From: Candidatus Latescibacterota bacterium
Lineage (GTDB): Bacteria; Latescibacterota; UBA2968
Assembly: GCA_965208125.1 (NCBI GenBank)
Contig: OZ242320.1
Coordinates: forward strand, 992,001 to 1,056,000
DNA: 64,000 bases
Direction of reading: 5' to 3'
Part shown: positions 13,357 to 50,586 of the stretch, piece by piece
Layout of the letters: the number at the start of each line of letters is the position of its first letter
How positions within the stretch are numbered: the first letter of the stretch is position 1
Notes under the pieces: generated by a model
What the model saw: the letters and a program-made list of their open reading frames with translations, nothing else
Databases searched by the model: none
Told to the model about the DNA's origin: nothing
Made by a program: the position numbers and the translations under genes

Positions 13357-13454
13357 TGGCGGGAATGTGTGGGAATCGAACCCACCAAGCGTGGGGTTAG
13401 CACGCAACAACGGGTTTGAAGCCCGCGGGGGACACCAGTTCCCCATCCACTCCC
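13357..13454 (-). tRNA. selC: tRNA-Sec (UCA anticodon), 98 nt, CCA encoded
   Basis: GGGAGTGG..D-arm with TGGT loop..GCGGG-CTTCAAA-CCCGT, long variable arm, GTGGG-TTCGATT-CCCAC, ACATTCCC-GCCA; 2 nt after the selD stop. Confidence 0.95.
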
Positions 13455-13456
13455 AA

Positions 13457-14500
13457 TCACGCGCGTACCTCAATTTCACCGGGATGTTCTGCAACCACCT
13501 CGCCAATATCTCGAGCCATCACACCGCGCTCAATGAGTGCCCCAAGAAAAGCATCAGCCACATCGGGCGCAAGTGCAATCAGCAGGCCACCAGAAGTCTG
13601 CGGATCAAAAAACAAACGCCTCAAAGACTCGTCAACATCTTCGGCAAACCGCACCGCATGCCCTCGCGCCGCCCGATTGCGCCGCAAACCACCGCCCTCA
13701 CGCCCCTCTGCAATCTGCAAAGCCAGATCGAAACGCGGCACATCAAGAGCACGTATGCAAAACCCAACGCCACTCGCCTCAGCCATCTCCAACCCATGCC
13801 CCAGCAACCCAAACCCGGTAATATCCGTACATCCACCCGCATTATATGCAACCATCTCCTCGGCTGCGACGCGATTCAACTGCACCATAGAATCCACCGC
13901 AACCTGCAAAGCATCTTCATCGATCTCGTCATTTTGATACGCATCCGACATCAAACCCGTACCCAGCGGCTTGGTCAGAATGAGACGATCACCCACCCGC
14001 GCACCCGCATTGGTCTTCACATCGTCTGGATGCACAACCCCCGTCACAGACAACCCGAACTTGGGCTCCACATCCTCCACAGAATGTCCACCCACCAGAA
14101 CTGCGCCGGACTCCGCCACCTTCTCCTGTCCCCCTCTTAAAACCTCGGCAATCACCTCTGGATCGACATCATCACTCGGAAACCCGCAAATATTCAGCGC
14201 AGTAATCGGGCGCCCTCCCATCGCATACACATCGCTCAGCGAATTGGCTGCCGCAATCTGCCCATACGCATGCGGATCATCGACAATAGGCGTAAAAAAA
14301 TCCACCGTCTGAATAAGCGCCACATCCTCAGAAATCCGAAACACACCGGCATCATCAGCCGTATTCATCCCCACCATCAAATCGGGATGCGCCACAGGCG
14401 GCAACTTTTTCAAAATCACATCCAGCACCGCTGGATCGAGTTTCGATGCTCAACCACCGCAACTGACGAGCTGAGTCAATCTTCTACCGCGATACTTCAT
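13457..14500 (-). CDS. selD: Selenophosphate synthetase, selenoprotein (U17, TGA at 14450-14452), 347 aa
   Basis: ATG 14500 gives MKYRGRRLTQLVSCGG-U-ASKLDP, in frame with the 323-aa ORF (DDAGV, QTVDFFTP, GGHS, TDITGFGL, DPQTSGGLL). Confidence 0.95.
14420..14436 (-). promoter_or_regulatory. Putative bacterial SECIS of selD
   Basis: ATCCAG-CGGTG-CTGGAT hairpin, loop about 20 nt 3' of the UGA. Confidence 0.7.
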
Positions 14501-44107: not shown

Positions 44108-45391
44108 TTACAGCGTCCACTGCAACGCTGTGTTAGCCAGTGTTATGTTGCGTATATCCCTTTGTATAGCGGCTGATATTTCTTCTGCACTGCTATTGGT
44201 TACATCAATCATCTGGTCGCTAAACTGCGAAAAAAAAGAACGCGGTATATGTGGATTGTTCAAAGTCGAAACTCCCAACGCACTTGACACAGATTTTGCG
44301 ATTGCATAACCCACCGGTGGACAAACAGAATTACCAATCTGCCCAAGTATCTGGTAAGCTGCGCCTTGAAAGACCCAATCTTCTGGAAATCCCTGAAGCA
44401 ACGCACAATCCTGAACAGAAAGCCTGAAATGACCATTCTCCGGGGGAAACATCAGGGCTTCCTCTCTGGACTTTTGCACGCCATTGGGCCAAATCTGGAG
44501 TTTTTCCCATACCTTTTGATTCGCCTTACTATTCAAAATACTGGTCGATTTTCTGGGACCAGTGAAGCCAGAGCGAAGAGTAGGCGCAAAGCAATCAAAA
44601 CCAATATCTTCCAAACCCAAAGCAGCCCTCGTTCCCATCGTATGTCTGCCAGAGTAGAACAAGCTATCTTTGGAGAAATGGGTTGGTTCAGGAATTTTGT
44701 AACGATTGGCTACCTCAAGAGACCGAAAACCGACAAAAATAACGCGCTTCCTGATTTGTGGGACGCCGAAATCGGATGCCACAGCTTTGAACTTTGCGAT
44801 ATAGTAATGCGGTGTCAGTGGCGCGAGAATCACGTCGTTTACATACTTTTCGAACTTTGGATCGAGCAGACCCGGAACATTCTCAACAACGAAAGTCTCG
44901 GGCATAAGCGTCAGCACAGCATCAATAAATGCTGGCAACATATCCCTGTCGTCTTTGCCTCCACCCCGCTTTCCAGCAATCGAAAAAGGCTGGCATGGAG
45001 GGCCTCCGTGAACGAGATCAACTTTACCTTTATAGACTGACCAATCTGCTTTTGTAACATCCCCCTTTGAACCACAAAAAACATTCCATTGCGGACGGTT
45101 TTGTTGTAGTGACGCACCGCAAATATCCAGGATATCAAAACTGGCAACATGCTCAAAACCCGCATATTCAAAACTAAGGTCCAAACCGCCACCACCTGAA
45201 AAGAGCGAAAGGGATCTCAAGCCGTTTTGACGTTGTTTAGGCATCAACTTCTCTGGTTTTAGAACAGGCTTATTGATTCTGCCCAGTTCATGTTGCAACT
45301 CACCATTGATAGCAGCCTTTTTCCTGAGCCTGGATCGAGTAGAAATCTCTCGATACCACTCCCGTTTGGCCTCCGATATATTGTATGGCAT
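44108..45391 (-). CDS. DNA (cytosine-5)-methyltransferase
   Basis: SLFSGGGG, GGPPCQPFS, ENVPG, PQIRKR, LQGFP, QIGNSV. Confidence 0.92.
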   Translation of the reverse strand: MPYNISEAKREWYREISTRSRLRKKAAINGELQHELGRINKPVLKPEKLMPKQRQNGLRSLSLFSGGGGLDLSFEYAGFEHVASFDILDICGASLQQNRPQWNVFCGSKGDVTKADWSVYKGKVDLVHGGPPCQPFSIAGKRGGGKDDRDMLPAFIDAVLTLMPETFVVENVPGLLDPKFEKYVNDVILAPLTPHYYIAKFKAVASDFGVPQIRKRVIFVGFRSLEVANRYKIPEPTHFSKDSLFYSGRHTMGTRAALGLEDIGFDCFAPTLRSGFTGPRKSTSILNSKANQKVWEKLQIWPNGVQKSREEALMFPPENGHFRLSVQDCALLQGFPEDWVFQGAAYQILGQIGNSVCPPVGYAIAKSVSSALGVSTLNNPHIPRSFFSQFSDQMIDVTNSSAEEISAAIQRDIRNITLANTALQWTL

Positions 45392-45503: not shown

Positions 45504-46613
45504 CTACAACCTATCCACCTGAGTCTCTCCACCCTTCAACTCTTCCATAAGCTCATCATATCGATCCCGATCGACCGGCATCGCGACCTCCTCTTTTCGC
45601 AGAGCCGAAAGCACAATCGCGTTAATCAGTTCCAGTGTCCGCCGTGCCGTCACCCCATCTGTAATCGCCTCCCCCCCATCCAGAATAGCGGAAACAAAAC
45701 TCTCCATTAGAGTTGGTCCCCCCTCGTCGGACGGCACATTCTCCCAGTTAATACCTGGCTGATGCCCCTTTGCCCCCTTTATAAACGCCCGCATAGGCGC
45801 CTCGTACCGCCCCAGGCGAAACACATCGGGCACCTTTGAATTGGCATTCTTCTCATCCCGAAACTCAATTGTACCCAGATCCCCTGAAATCTGCCTGTAA
45901 TTCAACCGCCGATCACACGTACTCAACTGCACATTCGCATGGGCACCACAGGCAAAACGGATATTGGCAACAACCGTATCCTCAATCTCCACACGATGGC
46001 CCCAATTGCACATCATCGCAGAAACAGCGACCGGGTCGCCCACCATCCAGCACAGCAAATCCAGATCGTGACTCGTCTGATTCATCAGCACCCCACCCCC
46101 TGCATGCTCCCAGGTACACCGCCATATATCCCGGTCGTAATACACCTCTGGCCGCGTCTCAATCCACATCCACAGCACCCGGTAAATCTCTCCCAGCGCC
46201 CCCTCATCAATCAGCCGCTTCAGCGCGCGATTGCCGGGAAACGTGCGATAATTGTGCCCCACGGCCAGCTTCAAATCCCGCGCCTGTGCCGCCTCGATCA
46301 TCCTGTCTGCCTCGGAAACCGTATTCGCAATCGGCTTCTCCACAAAAGTATGCAACTCCGCCTCCAAACAATCCAAACCCATCGGCGCGTGGAGATGGTG
46401 CGGCGTAGCAATCACCACCGCATCCAGATCCTCGGCCTCGACCATCTCCCGATAATCGCCCCAGGCACGCGCACCCCGTTCTTCTCCAACCTGCCGCGCA
46501 TAATCCAGATCCAAATCCGCCACCGCCACCAGCTCCGCCCGATCCAGTCCTGAAATCTCCCGCACATGTTGCCCGCCCATACCCTTCAAACCGACCACAC
46601 CGAACCTGACCAT
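45504..46613 (-). CDS. Gfo/Idh/MocA family oxidoreductase
   Basis: GVVGLKGMG, ATPH, VEKP, GGGVLMNQTSH. Confidence 0.9.
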   Translation of the reverse strand: MVRFGVVGLKGMGGQHVREISGLDRAELVAVADLDLDYARQVGEERGARAWGDYREMVEAEDLDAVVIATPHHLHAPMGLDCLEAELHTFVEKPIANTVSEADRMIEAAQARDLKLAVGHNYRTFPGNRALKRLIDEGALGEIYRVLWMWIETRPEVYYDRDIWRCTWEHAGGGVLMNQTSHDLDLLCWMVGDPVAVSAMMCNWGHRVEIEDTVVANIRFACGAHANVQLSTCDRRLNYRQISGDLGTIEFRDEKNANSKVPDVFRLGRYEAPMRAFIKGAKGHQPGINWENVPSDEGGPTLMESFVSAILDGGEAITDGVTARRTLELINAIVLSALRKEEVAMPVDRDRYDELMEELKGGETQVDRL

Positions 46614-46639
46614 AACGCTCTCCTTTTTACTTTCCTATA

Positions 46640-46668
46640 TTGACAAACGACGTATCAATCCATAATAT
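46640..46668 (+). promoter_or_regulatory. Sigma70 promoter for the deiodinase-like gene
   Basis: TTGACA-N17-TAATAT; GGAGG RBS downstream. Confidence 0.55.
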
Positions 46669-46694
46669 ATTCAAAAAAACCCGGAGGACTCCCC

Positions 46695-47258
46695 ATGTCC
46701 AAAACCTTCCAAAATCGCGCCGAAGCCTTTGCCTATCTCAGCCAAAATGACCCGCGCGCGCCCAAAGCCGGAGATCCCGCGCCAGACTTTGAACTATCGG
46801 ACATCAACGGCGAAAACCCCGTGCGCCTCTCGCAACTATGCAAAGACAAACCCGTTGCACTCATCTTCGGCAGCTTCACATGACCGCCCTTTGTCCGCGA
46901 GGCAGTTAGCCTCCGCGACCTCTATGCAACATATCACAAACAGATCCACTTTCTCGTAATCTACATCCGCGAAGCCCATCCAGAAGACGGCTGGAAACTC
47001 AAAGACACAGGAATCTACGATCCAAAAACCCTTGTGGAACGCCGAAAAGTTGCAAAAACGTGCGAAGATGCCATGCAATACGGCATACGCACCTACGTTG
47101 ACGACATAGACGACGCCGTCATGAATGACTACGTCGCCTGGCCCGAACGCCTCTACCTGATCGGCACGGACAACCGCATCGCCTACGCTGGCAAACACGG
47201 TCCCTATGGATTCAGCCCCCAGGAACTCAAAGCGGCAATAGATCACATCACCCGTTGA
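46695..47258 (+). CDS. Iodothyronine-deiodinase-like selenoprotein (U63, TGA at 46881-46883), 187 aa
   Basis: Read-through gives IFGSFT-U-PPF..YIREAHPEDGW..VDD..WPERLYLI, matching deiodinase FGSCTUPPF / YIEEAH..DGW / ERLY. Confidence 0.9.
46893..46919 (+). promoter_or_regulatory. Putative SECIS of the deiodinase-like gene
   Basis: GTC-C-GCG-AGGC-AGTTA-GCCT-C-CGC-GAC; loop starts after 20 nt following the UGA. Confidence 0.65.
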
Positions 47259-48715
47259 AAATTCTCAAACGCCTCGTCCCAGACATCCGCATCCGTCGGA
47301 CTATACGTCTTAATCGCAGTAGAAGCACGCACAACATCCCGCAGTTCATCAAGCGAGCCAATCTGCCCTTTGCCCATCGCCTGCATCAAAAGATTGCCCA
47401 TTGCAGTCGCCTCAGCCGGCCCCGACAGCACCGCCCGCCCTGTCGCAGAAGCGATAAACTGGCACAAAAGCGTATTGTGAATGCCCCCACCCACAATGTG
47501 AATATCGCCGAGCTCCTTGCCTAAGGCATCTTCAAGCTGCCCCAGAACATAGCGACATTTGAGCGCCAGACTCTCCAGCGCCGTGCGAATAATATCCCCC
47601 TCGCTATCGGGCAACCTTTGACCAGTGCGCCTGCAAAAATCCCGAATGCGAGACGGCATATCCCCGGGCGTACCAAAATCGGCGTGATCCGGATCGATAA
47701 ACGACGCGAGCCGATCCGATTCCATCGCCAGCCCCATCAACTCTTCCCACGAATAATCTTTCCCCGCCAACGCCCACACGCGGCGGCACTCCTGCACAAT
47801 CCACAGCCCCGAAATATTCTTCAGAAATCGAATCGTATGATCAACGCCGCCCTCATTGGTAAAATTATGTGCAAGCGCGCGCTTATTAATCGCGGGTTCA
47901 GGCAATTCCGCCCCCATCAACGCCCACGTACCACAACTGATATAAACCGCATCGGGCGAAGAAAGAGGCACAGCCGCAACTGCCGACCCCGTATCGTGAC
48001 AAGCCGGTGCAATCACATCAATCGGTGCAATACCCATCTCATCCGCAATACGCTTGCGAATAGGCCCGAGCACCGTACTCGGAGACACCACATCCGGAAG
48101 CATATCCGTGGGAATATCGAGCGCATTGAGCATTGATTTTGCCCAGGCATTCTCGCGCGGATTGAAGAACTGCGTAGTCGTCGCATTGGAATACTCACAC
48201 ACCTTCATACCTGTAAACCAGAAATTGAACAAATCGGGCATCGTGAGAAAAGTGCGCGCAATATCGAGCTGAGGCGACTGCGCGAGACGCTGCGCGAGCA
48301 ACTGATAAAGCGTGTTAAGCTCCATAAACTGAATACCCGTCTGCTCAAAAATCTCCTCGCGAGAAACGCGCTCAAACGCGACATCCATCATCCCCTGTGT
48401 GCGCGCATCGCGGTAACAAAAGGGATTGCCGAGCAAATTGTCCTGCGCATCGAGCAAGCCATAATCGACCCCCCACGTATCACAGCCCATACCATTGAGC
48501 GGTTCCCCAGACCGAACAGCGAGACGCAACCCCGTACACATCTCGTCAAACAGCCGCAGCGCGTCCCAATAATAATGATTGCCAACAGGTATTCCCTGAT
48601 TGGAAAACCGGTGAATCTCTTCAATATCCAGACGCGCGCCATCAAAACGCCCCAAAACAGCCCGGCCGCTGGACGCACCCAAATCATAAGCGAGATAATT
48701 GGTTGTCGATGCCAT
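47243..48715 (-). CDS. rhaB: Rhamnulokinase (FGGY family)
   Basis: DLGASSGR, DTWGVDY, YRD.RT, HDTGSA, ISCGTW, TNEGG, LKNISGLW. Confidence 0.9.
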   Translation of the reverse strand: MASTTNYLAYDLGASSGRAVLGRFDGARLDIEEIHRFSNQGIPVGNHYYWDALRLFDEMCTGLRLAVRSGEPLNGMGCDTWGVDYGLLDAQDNLLGNPFCYRDARTQGMMDVAFERVSREEIFEQTGIQFMELNTLYQLLAQRLAQSPQLDIARTFLTMPDLFNFWFTGMKVCEYSNATTTQFFNPRENAWAKSMLNALDIPTDMLPDVVSPSTVLGPIRKRIADEMGIAPIDVIAPACHDTGSAVAAVPLSSPDAVYISCGTWALMGAELPEPAINKRALAHNFTNEGGVDHTIRFLKNISGLWIVQECRRVWALAGKDYSWEELMGLAMESDRLASFIDPDHADFGTPGDMPSRIRDFCRRTGQRLPDSEGDIIRTALESLALKCRYVLGQLEDALGKELGDIHIVGGGIHNTLLCQFIASATGRAVLSGPAEATAMGNLLMQAMGKGQIGSLDELRDVVRASTAIKTYSPTDADVWDEAFENFQRVM

Positions 48716-48808: not shown

Positions 48809-48960
48809 AGGCACTCCTTTCCGCAACAGAAGCGAGGCTGTGAGAAACAGATACAAGAGCAACAGCGCTGGTGCAATTCGCATTGTGTTTATAAAATTCA
48901 GTGGCTATTATAGGACGCAGTTGGGAAGTGTCAAGTATTTCGTTATCAGGAGTGTGTATT

Positions 48961-50586
48961 ATGAGCAAAGACTTGAAAGCAGTTTTTCATTTTTGGAAGC
49001 GTTTTGCAAGTCAAAATGGCCTGAATCGCCGCGATTTAATCAAAGGCGTCGGCGCCGTAAGTCTCGGTCTCGCAGCCGGAACCTTCGCCGCGCCACAGCT
49101 CTACGGAAATTCAAACGTAGCGAAATCAAAACGACGCAATCGCATCCAACTCGAAAACGCCGAGCGTGGAACGCGCGACTGGTTGCTCACTAAGACCGAC
49201 ATCAACGACATCGAACCGGTGGCGTTGTGGCGTTCTCCGCGAATTGAGGGCTACTGCTCCGAGACGAGCGTGAGCGCTGGCGACACGATCAAGATCATGG
49301 TGAGCACGAATCCAGTGTCCCAGTTTGATCTGGAGATCTTTCGCACAGGCTATTACGGCGGAACCGGCGGTCGTTTCATGAAGCGTTTTGATTCTCTACA
49401 GGGCAAAACCCAGGCCGATCCGTCGATAGGCGAAAACCGTCTGCGCGAATGCACCTGGGAACCTTCCGTAGAATTTGAGATTCCAGACGATTGGCTCAGC
49501 GGCGTCTATCTGGGCAAACTCACTGCCAAGGAGGGCGGCGTACAAAGCTACGTCATCTTTATTGTGCGCGATGATCGCCTCTGCGATTTGCTCTTCCAGT
49601 GCAGCGACATGACCTGGCAGGCCTACAACAGTTGGCCTACCAACGAGTGGTCTCTTTACCACAACGACGAGAATGGCTACACGGGATATAAAAAAAGGAA
49701 AAAGTGGAGTACGGGTCCGGATACCGGATGGGTGAGTTTTGACCGTCCCTATGCCAATTTTTGCATGGATCATCTTGTCAAGAATCCCAAGTCCGTGGGC
49801 ACGGGCGAGTTTCTTCTTTGGGAATTTCCACTGTCCTATTGGATAGAGCAGCAGGGGTACGATGTGTCGTATATCTCAAATGTGGATACGCACAGGCACG
49901 GGCCGCGATTGCAGCGCACGAAAGGCTTTATCTCGGTGGGCCATGACGAGTATTGGACCCGGGAGATGTACGACAACATCAGCGCGGCCCGAGACGCGGG
50001 CGTCAACCTTGTCTTCCTGAGCGGGAACTCCATCTGGGGCGTTGTACCTTTGTTGCCCTCCGCCAAGGGGCAGTCCCACCGGATCATGCGTCGGGAAGGC
50101 GTATTCCTGGGCGAGAAACTTGGCGGGATGTATCACAAGCGAACAGGCTTCAAGTATCCGCCGGGGCCGGACGGGGCACTGCTTATGGGTGGACGTACGG
50201 CCGGTATCGGCGGCGGCGGAGACTGGGTCTGCGTCAAGCCCGATCACTGGCTATATCAAGGCACAGACCTGAAAGAAGGCGACGCAATCAAAGGCCTGGT
50301 GGGATGGGAATGGCACGGTTCTCCCCCTTACGATCAGCCCGGGATGGAAATCCTGGCGAAAGGCGCCACGAAAAATAACCAGGGAAAAGTCAAACCGCCC
50401 CATGTCGCGACGATCTACGACGGGCCCAGGAACAACTTTGTGTTCAACGCCGGGACGATCTGGTGGGCGCAAGGTTTGTCATCGCCTCCAGGCCACGTAC
50501 TACCCGCGCGGGTTGCCGAGCCGCAAGGCCCGGACCCGCGCGTGCAGCGTATGATGGAGAATGTGTTCCAACAGTTTATCCAATGA
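48961..50586 (+). CDS. N,N-dimethylformamidase beta-subunit-like protein, copy 1, Tat signal
   Basis: NRRDLIK; IEGY, R.GYYGG, SGVYL, TWQAYN, SLY, VSFDRPY, GHDEYW, GWE, VFNAGT. Confidence 0.8.
   Translation: MSKDLKAVFHFWKRFASQNGLNRRDLIKGVGAVSLGLAAGTFAAPQLYGNSNVAKSKRRNRIQLENAERGTRDWLLTKTDINDIEPVALWRSPRIEGYCSETSVSAGDTIKIMVSTNPVSQFDLEIFRTGYYGGTGGRFMKRFDSLQGKTQADPSIGENRLRECTWEPSVEFEIPDDWLSGVYLGKLTAKEGGVQSYVIFIVRDDRLCDLLFQCSDMTWQAYNSWPTNEWSLYHNDENGYTGYKKRKKWSTGPDTGWVSFDRPYANFCMDHLVKNPKSVGTGEFLLWEFPLSYWIEQQGYDVSYISNVDTHRHGPRLQRTKGFISVGHDEYWTREMYDNISAARDAGVNLVFLSGNSIWGVVPLLPSAKGQSHRIMRREGVFLGEKLGGMYHKRTGFKYPPGPDGALLMGGRTAGIGGGGDWVCVKPDHWLYQGTDLKEGDAIKGLVGWEWHGSPPYDQPGMEILAKGATKNNQGKVKPPHVATIYDGPRNNFVFNAGTIWWAQGLSSPPGHVLPARVAEPQGPDPRVQRMMENVFQQFIQ

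Follow-up and report, generated by a model that had tools for sequence, protein, structure and literature searches.

The family of bacterial "deiodinase-like proteins" was predicted computationally by Zhang, Fomenko and Gladyshev in 2005 from Sargasso Sea data, in which, according to the accessible text of that article, four selenocysteine (Sec) and six Cys sequences were found together with bacterial SECIS elements, whereas the family was missing from all of the roughly 260 complete genomes considered (PMC1088965). Since one would not expect bacteria to have thyroid hormones, the same authors suggested a redox role for the family (PMC1088965). The GOS data yielded 22 Sec and 21 Cys deiodinase-like sequences in 2008 (PMC2398784), and two reviews of the prokaryotic selenoproteome, from 2022 (PMC9312934) and 2026 (PMC13188914), list the family without a function in their available sections, both giving its Sec motif as UxxC. 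For twenty years bacterial deiodinase-like selenoproteins have been catalogued with no substrate assigned to them, and a deiodinase paper from 2022 still calls deiodinases metazoan-specific (PMC9141512). Our literature search, which covered main texts, found no bacterial member of the deiodinase family that had been assayed. The initial annotation of the locus described here had stated that such bacterial proteins were predicted but that no substrate was known to it, which agrees with the 2005 prediction (PMC1088965) and with the available text of both reviews (PMC9312934, PMC13188914).

The animal deiodinases Dio1-3 offer a second point of comparison. In these enzymes a Ser/Thr/Tyr/Glu/His network has been proposed to act as a proton relay and Arg275 of Dio3 to clamp the thyronine carboxylate (accessible text of PMC11592359 and PMC9141512). 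A third comparison is with the BCP/PrxQ atypical 2-Cys peroxiredoxins, which share the thioredoxin-fold scaffold and carry the catalytic residue at a helix start and the resolving Cys in a later helix. The active-site signature of peroxiredoxins is PxxxTxxC plus an Arg.

Here, we describe a gene found in a stretch of 64,000 nucleotides (the window) from the genome, a single contig of 5.75 Mb, of a sponge-associated Latescibacterota bacterium. This gene is an unannotated further member of the bacterial family rather than the founder of a new one, since the family was described computationally in 2005 (PMC1088965, as far as its accessible text goes). With that family it shares the Pfam domain PF00837, the in-frame UGA/Cys pair, a SECIS hairpin whose small apical loop contains a G, and the lack of a known substrate. 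Unlike the family as reviewed, with its UxxC motif, the subfamily described here has an animal-type U-P-P-F-V site with no Cys at +3, and its host is a Latescibacterota. The available text of the 2026 selenoproteome review makes no mention of Latescibacterota (PMC13188914), nor does the available main text of the sponge-Latescibacterota genome paper mention a selenoprotein or a deiodinase (PMC12993501).

A single reading frame across an in-frame UGA codon

The coding sequence lies on the forward strand at 46695..47258. It starts with the ATG at 46695. Codon 63, at 46881-46883, is an in-frame TGA, beyond which the frame stays open until another TGA, at 47256-47258, the stop codon that is counted in these coordinates. 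Under translation table 11 the gene is split into two open reading frames, 46695..46883 (62 aa) and 47034..47258 (74 aa). The initial annotation had proposed that these two short frames are joined through the TGA, and they do form one frame of 187 codons whose translation, with the first TGA read as Sec (U), gives a protein of 187 residues that includes FGSFT-U-PPF, YIREAHPEDGW and WPERLY.

The upstream signals that had been announced together with the frame were also recovered. A putative sigma-70-like promoter, recognised by its match to the consensus, is found on the forward strand at 46640..46668 (TTGACA, a spacer of 17 nt and TAATAT, with 10 of 12 consensus matches), in a searched region where two promoter-type sites were found against 0.8 expected. 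A ribosome-binding site, GGAGGA, can be read from the sequence at 46683..46688 on the same strand, 6 nt 5' of the ATG. The predicted absence of a membrane anchor held as well: the 19-residue Kyte-Doolittle windows that start at residues 1-30 peak at -0.59, and the maximum for the whole protein is 1.13, at residue 54.

Probable selenocysteine at codon 63

The stretch from 46695 to 47258 is almost certainly a genuine Sec-encoding gene of the deiodinase family, and the comparison with its relatives carries most of this argument. In a tblastn search, considering all stored loci, each of the 30 loci that span the site has a stop that coincides with position 63 of the query. These 30 TGA loci belong to Latescibacterota and to Anaerolineales (three Anaerolineales genomes), with protein identities going down to 32%. 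In a survey of 40 relatives and the window's own genome, the gene was found with one TGA each in 14 congeners (91-96% identity) and in three genomes from other genera of the family (61-64%). When the survey was extended to the phylum, 27 of 168 genomes had a match at E <= 1e-15, and each of the 27 places extending as far as position 63 had a TGA; the only three stop-free places are pieces at contig ends that start after residue 69. The protein is conserved on both sides of the TGA, in one frame. More distant relatives have Cys at this position: an exhaustive search gave 149 representatives, 141 of which cover the site, with Cys in 132, Trp in three, Ser in three and other residues in three.

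Would the TGA rather be a true stop, leaving a pseudogene or two small open reading frames, or a codon for Trp or Gly in an alternative code? Such a reading could draw on the two separate frames obtained with table 11 and on the way in which homologues are stored. Close "full-length" homologues in a large database have Trp at the Sec position in all but one case (Cys), and more than 100 other stored homologues begin downstream of the TGA, as fragments some 120 residues long. Trp is, on the other hand, what a gene caller using a code with TGA as Trp would print, and the family is under-counted because its members are stored with this Trp or as truncated "hypothetical" fragments; two of these fragments, one from Latescibacterota and one from Chloroflexota, are labelled "hypothetical protein" at NCBI. 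Several observations make a non-selenoprotein very improbable. In all 30 loci, which come from two phyla, the same codon is a TGA and both halves are conserved at the protein level, and full-length relatives have Cys and not Trp at the site. TGA is an ordinary stop in this host, as it terminates nine of the 40 open reading frames of at least 300 aa in the window. Finally, the genome has a complete Sec machinery.

All components of this machinery score above their curated cut-offs (selB 396 bits, selA 578, selD 365 and tRNA-Sec 70). Two of the components, needed in trans, are in the window itself, on the reverse strand. The tRNA-Sec is at 13357..13454 (ARAGORN, anticodon TCA; RF01852, 70.1 bits) and selD, coding for selenophosphate synthetase, is at 13559..14482 (TIGR00476, 364.8 bits), the latter coordinates being derived from genome positions 1005559-1006482; selD has one in-frame TGA of its own. 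Judging from this gene content, UGA63 is predicted to be recoded to Sec by the genome's own SelA, SelB, SelD and tRNA-Sec, under the direction of the hairpin described below.

A SECIS-type hairpin downstream of the UGA

A hairpin of the bacterial SECIS type is present on the forward strand at 46893..46919. Its core stem pairs 46899-46903 with 46909-46913 (GAGGC with GCCUC) around the 5-nt loop AGUUA at 46904-46908, which begins 20 nt past the end of the UGA codon, and a lower stem is possible between 46893-46897 and 46914-46919. Folded as a single sequence, this element is unremarkable (minimum free energy -14.7 kcal/mol, z = -1.75, a stability that 14 of 200 shuffles attain), and it is the comparison of 25 distinct relatives that singles it out. 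The core stem is paired in 92.8% of cells, versus 27-60% after the 3' partner has been shifted by 1-3 columns, although the hairpin lies within conserved coding sequence, which limits how this conservation of pairing can be read. The extended stem of 10 pairs is paired at 86.4% in the same 25 sequences. RNAalifold gives the same core stem independently. The second base of the loop, G46905 (column 25), is invariant in 25 of 25 sequences; according to the accessible text of the 2005 study, a G in the loop is a mark of bacterial SECIS elements (PMC1088965).

Compensatory changes were seen at three of the five core pairs, with double changes in only five of 125 cells, and the covariation score was matched by one of 500 shuffles; the outermost core pair is broken in five of the 25 sequences. 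In one compensatory case, a Glu to Gln change (GAG to CAG) in the 5' arm accompanies a synonymous Leu change (CTC to CTG) in the 3' arm, and in another, an Ala to Thr change (GCx to ACx) in the 5' arm accompanies a synonymous Ser change (AGC to AGT) in the 3' arm. Coding constraint alone does not predict that an amino-acid change in one arm should go along with a synonymous change in the other. A scan of 46600-47300 against Rfam, with E values up to 10, returned no SECIS family, its sole match being a chance sRNA (13.9 bits, E = 5), as bacterial SECIS elements are too short and too variable for that library. The SECIS-like hairpin of the initial annotation is thus upheld by its conserved position, its invariant loop G and its compensatory changes across the 25 relatives.

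Family, fold and active site

The initial annotation had also suggested a search with the T4_deiodinase model as a check, and this profile (PF00837) matches residues 24-183 with 103.5 bits (E 1.5e-29) against a gathering cut-off of 27. The NCBIfam model NF038285 (deiodinase_rel, 347 positions) matches residues 22-182 at its positions 175-340 with 181.7 bits. The curated cut-off of 250 is not reached since the match is confined to the C-terminal half of the model, the N-terminal half being missing from this protein. Peroxiredoxin-type profiles match as well, AhpC-TSA (PF00578) with 34.9 bits (cut-off 26) and Redoxin with 29.1 bits (cut-off 26.6), but these matches do not go beyond the first 72-75 positions of the profiles (2-72 of 124 for AhpC-TSA). 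Among sequences of solved structures, the best matches are mouse Dio3 (4tr3, 5.8e-22) and then Dio2 (9h48, 1.9e-14).

An AlphaFold2 model, built from an alignment of 89 relatives, has a mean pLDDT of 96.8 and a pTM of 0.92. When it was compared to known structures with Foldseek, Dio3 (TM 0.78, 31% identity) and Dio2 (TM 0.75, 25% identity) took the top ranks, followed by ResA-type oxidoreductases and peroxiredoxins at TM values of about 0.6. The BCP and other peroxiredoxin structures 3drn, 5epf and 1xvw appear among these fold matches; at the sequence level, the resemblance to BCP/PrxQ is weak and partial (5epf, 5.6e-4, residues 23-79), and unlike BCP/PrxQ our protein lacks the signature Pro and has the deiodinase insertion. 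Taking profile, structure matches and model together, we conclude that the gene product is predicted to be a cytoplasmic protein of the deiodinase family, with a thioredoxin/peroxiredoxin-type fold and the deiodinase-specific insertion. The reading frame, PF00837, the Dio matches, the fold and the hairpin all bear out the hidden, soluble deiodinase-like selenoprotein that had been proposed at the outset.

The family is broad: 3435 cluster representatives were found in the exhaustive search with E values up to 0.001, of which 1027 have values of 1e-10 or lower. A Pfam scan of 30 long relatives found EF-hands in 20, TPR in three, two deiodinase domains in three, a CMD (AhpD-like) domain in two and BNR in one.

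With the catalytic domains of mouse Dio3 and Dio2 our protein has in common the fold, the G-S-x-T-U-P-P-F site, the Y-I-x-E-A-H-P-x-D-G-W edge of the insertion and the E-R-L-Y strand. We compared the active sites residue by residue, with Dio3 numbered as the 4tr3_A chain position + 113, in agreement with the accessible text of PMC11592359, and with conservation counted in the 89 aligned relatives. Sec63 corresponds to Dio3 Sec170, in a column with Cys in 74 of 89 and Trp in 12. The elements of the Dio1-3 relay are present: Ser60 (Dio3 Ser167; Ser in 73/89), Thr62 (Thr169; Thr in 68/89), Tyr90 (kept in 88/89), Glu93 (Glu200; Glu in 88/89) and His95 (His202; His in 87/89). Trp100, at the position of Dio3 Trp207, is Trp in 51/89, and further conserved positions are Arg116 (88/89), Asp136 (89/89), Pro150 (88/89) and Arg152 (87/89), the last of which we take to be at the position of the catalytic Arg of peroxiredoxins. 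At the positions of the peroxiredoxin signature, the protein has Leu56 at -7, where Pro is expected, and Ser60 at -3.

Other parts of the animal enzymes have no counterpart. The outer, solvent-exposed His of the relay (Dio3 His219, DIO1 His174) is absent, as it falls in a gap of two residues between Pro110 and Lys111, and only three of the 89 relatives have His at position 110. The thyronine clamp (Dio3 Arg275, Dio2 Lys241) is replaced by His168, at a variable position (Arg 20, Pro 17, Gln 8, Leu 7 and others, of 89). Both deiodinase cysteines are missing, the proximal one (Dio3 Cys168) being Phe61 here, with Cys in 9/89, and the distal one (Dio3 Cys239) being Ile131, with Cys in 1/89; the N-terminal transmembrane anchor of Dio1-3 is absent too. 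Conserved instead is Cys123, kept in 62/89 relatives, which lies at the end of helix 113-127 and eight residues before the position of the distal Cys, and which is a candidate resolving cysteine. In some PrxQ enzymes, the resolving Cys presumably lies in the equivalent helix. From this mapping, the core that bears the chemistry appears to be of the deiodinase type, and the parts that hold thyronine, anchor the protein in the membrane and provide the resolving Cys in animals are absent.

Proposed catalytic cycle and substrate

Based on this comparison, we propose a model in which the selenolate of Sec63 would attack an electrophilic atom of the substrate and form a selenenyl species (Se-X or Se-OH), while the network of Ser60, Thr62, Tyr90, Glu93 and His95, which is found in deiodinases and absent from ordinary peroxiredoxins, would protonate the leaving group. 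The oxidised Sec would then form a selenenylsulfide with Cys123 as the resolving residue, after which a thiol reductant of the thioredoxin type would regenerate the enzyme. We give a probability of roughly 0.45 to this explanation as a whole, that is, to a Sec enzyme of the deiodinase family with a cycle through Cys123 and with a small haloaromatic slightly ahead of peroxide as its substrate. Its parts differ in strength. The Se-S cycle through Cys123 has somewhat better than even odds. That the physiological substrate would be an organohalide, by which we mean a small iodo- or bromo-aromatic and not a thyronine, is the least certain step, with odds below even.

The lean towards a haloaromatic comes from three observations: the residues that separate deiodinases from peroxiredoxins are near-invariant in the bacterial family; this family first came to light in marine data and was absent from the complete genomes of that time, according to the accessible text of PMC1088965; and close relatives of the gene occur in libraries derived from sponges. 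Against a deiodinase-like substrate stand the variable clamp position, the outer relay His that falls in a gap and the replacement of both deiodinase cysteines, and the haloaromatic lean has also to contend with the existence of AhpD-like fusions and with the retention of the peroxiredoxin-type Arg152.

These last two points are shared by an alternative with a lower but real chance, in which the protein would be a peroxiredoxin-like thiol peroxidase or antioxidant reductase. Sec63 would reduce H2O2 or an organic hydroperoxide and become Se-OH, Cys123 would resolve it, a thioredoxin or AhpD-like partner would recycle the enzyme, and the deiodinase-type insertion would be an ancestral structural feature and no sign of halogen chemistry. 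The AhpC-TSA and Redoxin matches above their cut-offs agree with it, as do the rank of peroxiredoxin and ResA structures right after the deiodinases in the fold search, the conservation of Arg152, the CMD/AhpD-like domain in two of the 30 long relatives scanned and the redox function proposed by the 2005 authors (PMC1088965, accessible text). The peroxiredoxin matches are, however, far weaker than the deiodinase match and confined to the first part of the profiles, PxxxTxxC is not kept, and plain peroxidase chemistry leaves unexplained why the deiodinase-specific Tyr90, Glu93 and His95 are near-invariant. It is also conceivable, if rather unlikely, that the protein has another thiol or selenol redox role, acting on a protein disulfide, a sulfenate or a methionine-sulfoxide-like target, or in the handling of metals or metalloids. 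Thiol-disulfide oxidoreductases of the ResA/TlpA type are indeed the next best structural matches, fusions to EF-hands (20/30) and TPR (3/30) in relatives suggest varied cellular settings, and the available text of the 2026 review places the family among the thioredoxin-fold selenoproteins of unknown role (PMC13188914). Against such a role, the site is U-P-P-F and the protein has no CxxC or UxxC pair, so that the site of classical dithiol exchange is missing, and the conserved acid/base network points to chemistry on a small molecule. Between these readings, the substrate assignment leans only slightly to a haloaromatic over a peroxide or another redox target. The initial annotation had inferred either a soluble reductive dehalogenase for iodo/bromo-aromatics or a peroxiredoxin-like enzyme, and both are candidate functions here: the catalytic core in common with deiodinases is conserved, but the residues that grip thyronines are not.

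Sponges contain bromo- and iodo-tyrosine products in abundance. A bolder version of the preferred haloaromatic reading, which we regard as speculative and on balance improbable, is that the protein would be a cofactor-free, Sec-dependent reductive dehalogenase with which sponge Latescibacterota and Anaerolineales would strip bromine or iodine from halotyrosines and halophenols of the host. If true, the protein would be the first bacterial dehalogenase with such chemistry, distinct from the RdhA enzymes with their cobalamin and the IYD enzymes with their flavin, and the thyroid-hormone deiodinases of animals would have a living prototype in it. The protein is a convenient object to decide this, as it is small, soluble and stand-alone, with a very-high-confidence model and an animal-type U-P-P-F site, and the presence of close relatives in sponge metatranscriptome libraries is also favourable. 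Halide release, if shown, would link bacterial organohalide chemistry with the origin of thyroid-hormone deiodination; peroxidase activity only, if shown, would settle the family as a peroxiredoxin variant.

The association with sponges can be followed in public sequencing runs. Among the runs that contain the most of a 1.1-kb stretch, at 0.35-0.45 of its sampled words, are some with the label sponge or marine metagenome. Contigs from RNA libraries that are 90-99% identical to the gene were found in four runs of three studies, three of these runs carrying the label sponge metagenome and the fourth that of metagenome. The TGA is spanned by four contigs (X15 to X18, at 46561-46948, 46682-47213, 46786-47188 and 46834-47020, respectively), and none of the 40 contig differences listed, of 46 in all, falls on the TGA at 46881-46883. 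The contigs cover parts of 46548-47435, and their uncovered flanks and depth are uninformative on expression level or transcript ends. As DNA can occur in such libraries, they are no proof of transcription; they indicate that close relatives are present in sponge-derived RNA libraries, which is compatible with transcription.

Gene neighbourhood and distribution

The selenoprotein gene is alone on its strand, flanked by genes for a GFO/IDH/MocA oxidoreductase and an FGGY sugar kinase that are both on the opposite strand, and it shares its final 16 bases with the kinase gene, at the 3' end of the latter. The order oxidoreductase/selenoprotein/kinase is the same in 10 of 11 congener loci; in the eleventh, the gene is elsewhere and the two neighbours abut. 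The neighbours are different in every divergent orthologue examined, and at 13 other loci they are unrelated: PhyH, arylsulfotransferase, M19 dipeptidase, radical SAM, epimerase, methyltransferase, DAG kinase, DUF3786, glyoxalase and CDGSH, among others. We looked for a functional clue or an operon partner at the gene's own locus and at these 13 others and found none, and with neighbours unrelated across loci no operon partner can be inferred.

The short gene is present in 14 of the 20 other genomes of the genus. We considered a co-loss of the gene with the Sec trait and rejected it: selA is retained in all five that were checked of the six congeners without the gene. The gene is thus accessory, as congeners that lack it still have selA. 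Variation within the genus extends to a longer form of the protein, which was searched for in the window's own genome and found to be absent there. Two congeners have this extra long paralogue, with 314-316 open codons and likewise with a TGA, and the one examined (genome G014, locus L043) has an N-terminal EF-hand part.

Genomic setting of the deiodinase-like gene

The deiodinase-like selenoprotein gene (46695-47258, plus strand) is displaced in one congener (L053, 1079-4595): there the oxidoreductase gene directly adjoins the kinase gene, and the small gene is found a few hundred bases past them. This is the sole congener of those compared in which the gene stands outside that pair, and it has moved as a unit. 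At least four of the 11 congener loci compared (L048, L051, L052 and L053) lack the segment between about 44090 and 45490, which therefore looks like a variable insert near the deiodinase-like gene. It holds an ORF on the minus strand (44108-45391) whose translation contains the motifs GGPPCQPFS and ENVPGL and which, with the family taken from these motifs, is presumably a C5 cytosine DNA methyltransferase.

Downstream, a 561-residue ORF on the plus strand (48901-50586) begins with a twin-arginine-like N-terminus (RRDLIKGVGAVSLGLAAG). Its similarity falls to 70-72% in two congeners; its neighbours stay above 90%.

Paralogues, aberrant copies and database homologues

Two congener genomes carry an additional, long paralogue (L043 in G014 and L069 in G004) of 314-316 open codons with one TGA, at 50% identity in the genome comparison and 49% by tblastn. 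In the L043 form EF-hands are found upstream of the TGA, and its hairpin has a shifted register and the loop GGUC.

Several copies in the stored loci of related genomes are irregular. The alignment of the Anaerolineales copy in L059 (4001-4557) is split over two frames, as would be expected if its N-terminal part contained a frameshift or an assembly error. In L041 (256-1845), 529 codons remain open in frame after the TGA, suggesting that the protein is extended at its C-terminus or that the stop has been lost. The L042 copy has an extra TAA.

The stored "full-length" database homologues P0002-P0012 and P0037 have W in place of Sec; they are evidently short metagenome contigs translated with a code that reads TGA as Trp. 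The same artefact awaits any search for Sec families in databases of such translations.

Selenocysteine machinery

At 13357-14482 on the minus strand, the window encodes selD directly adjoining the tRNA-Sec gene. There is one in-frame TGA in selD, so that its product is itself a selenoprotein. Both selA and selB lie apart from this pair in the same genome (G000, 61052-64314).
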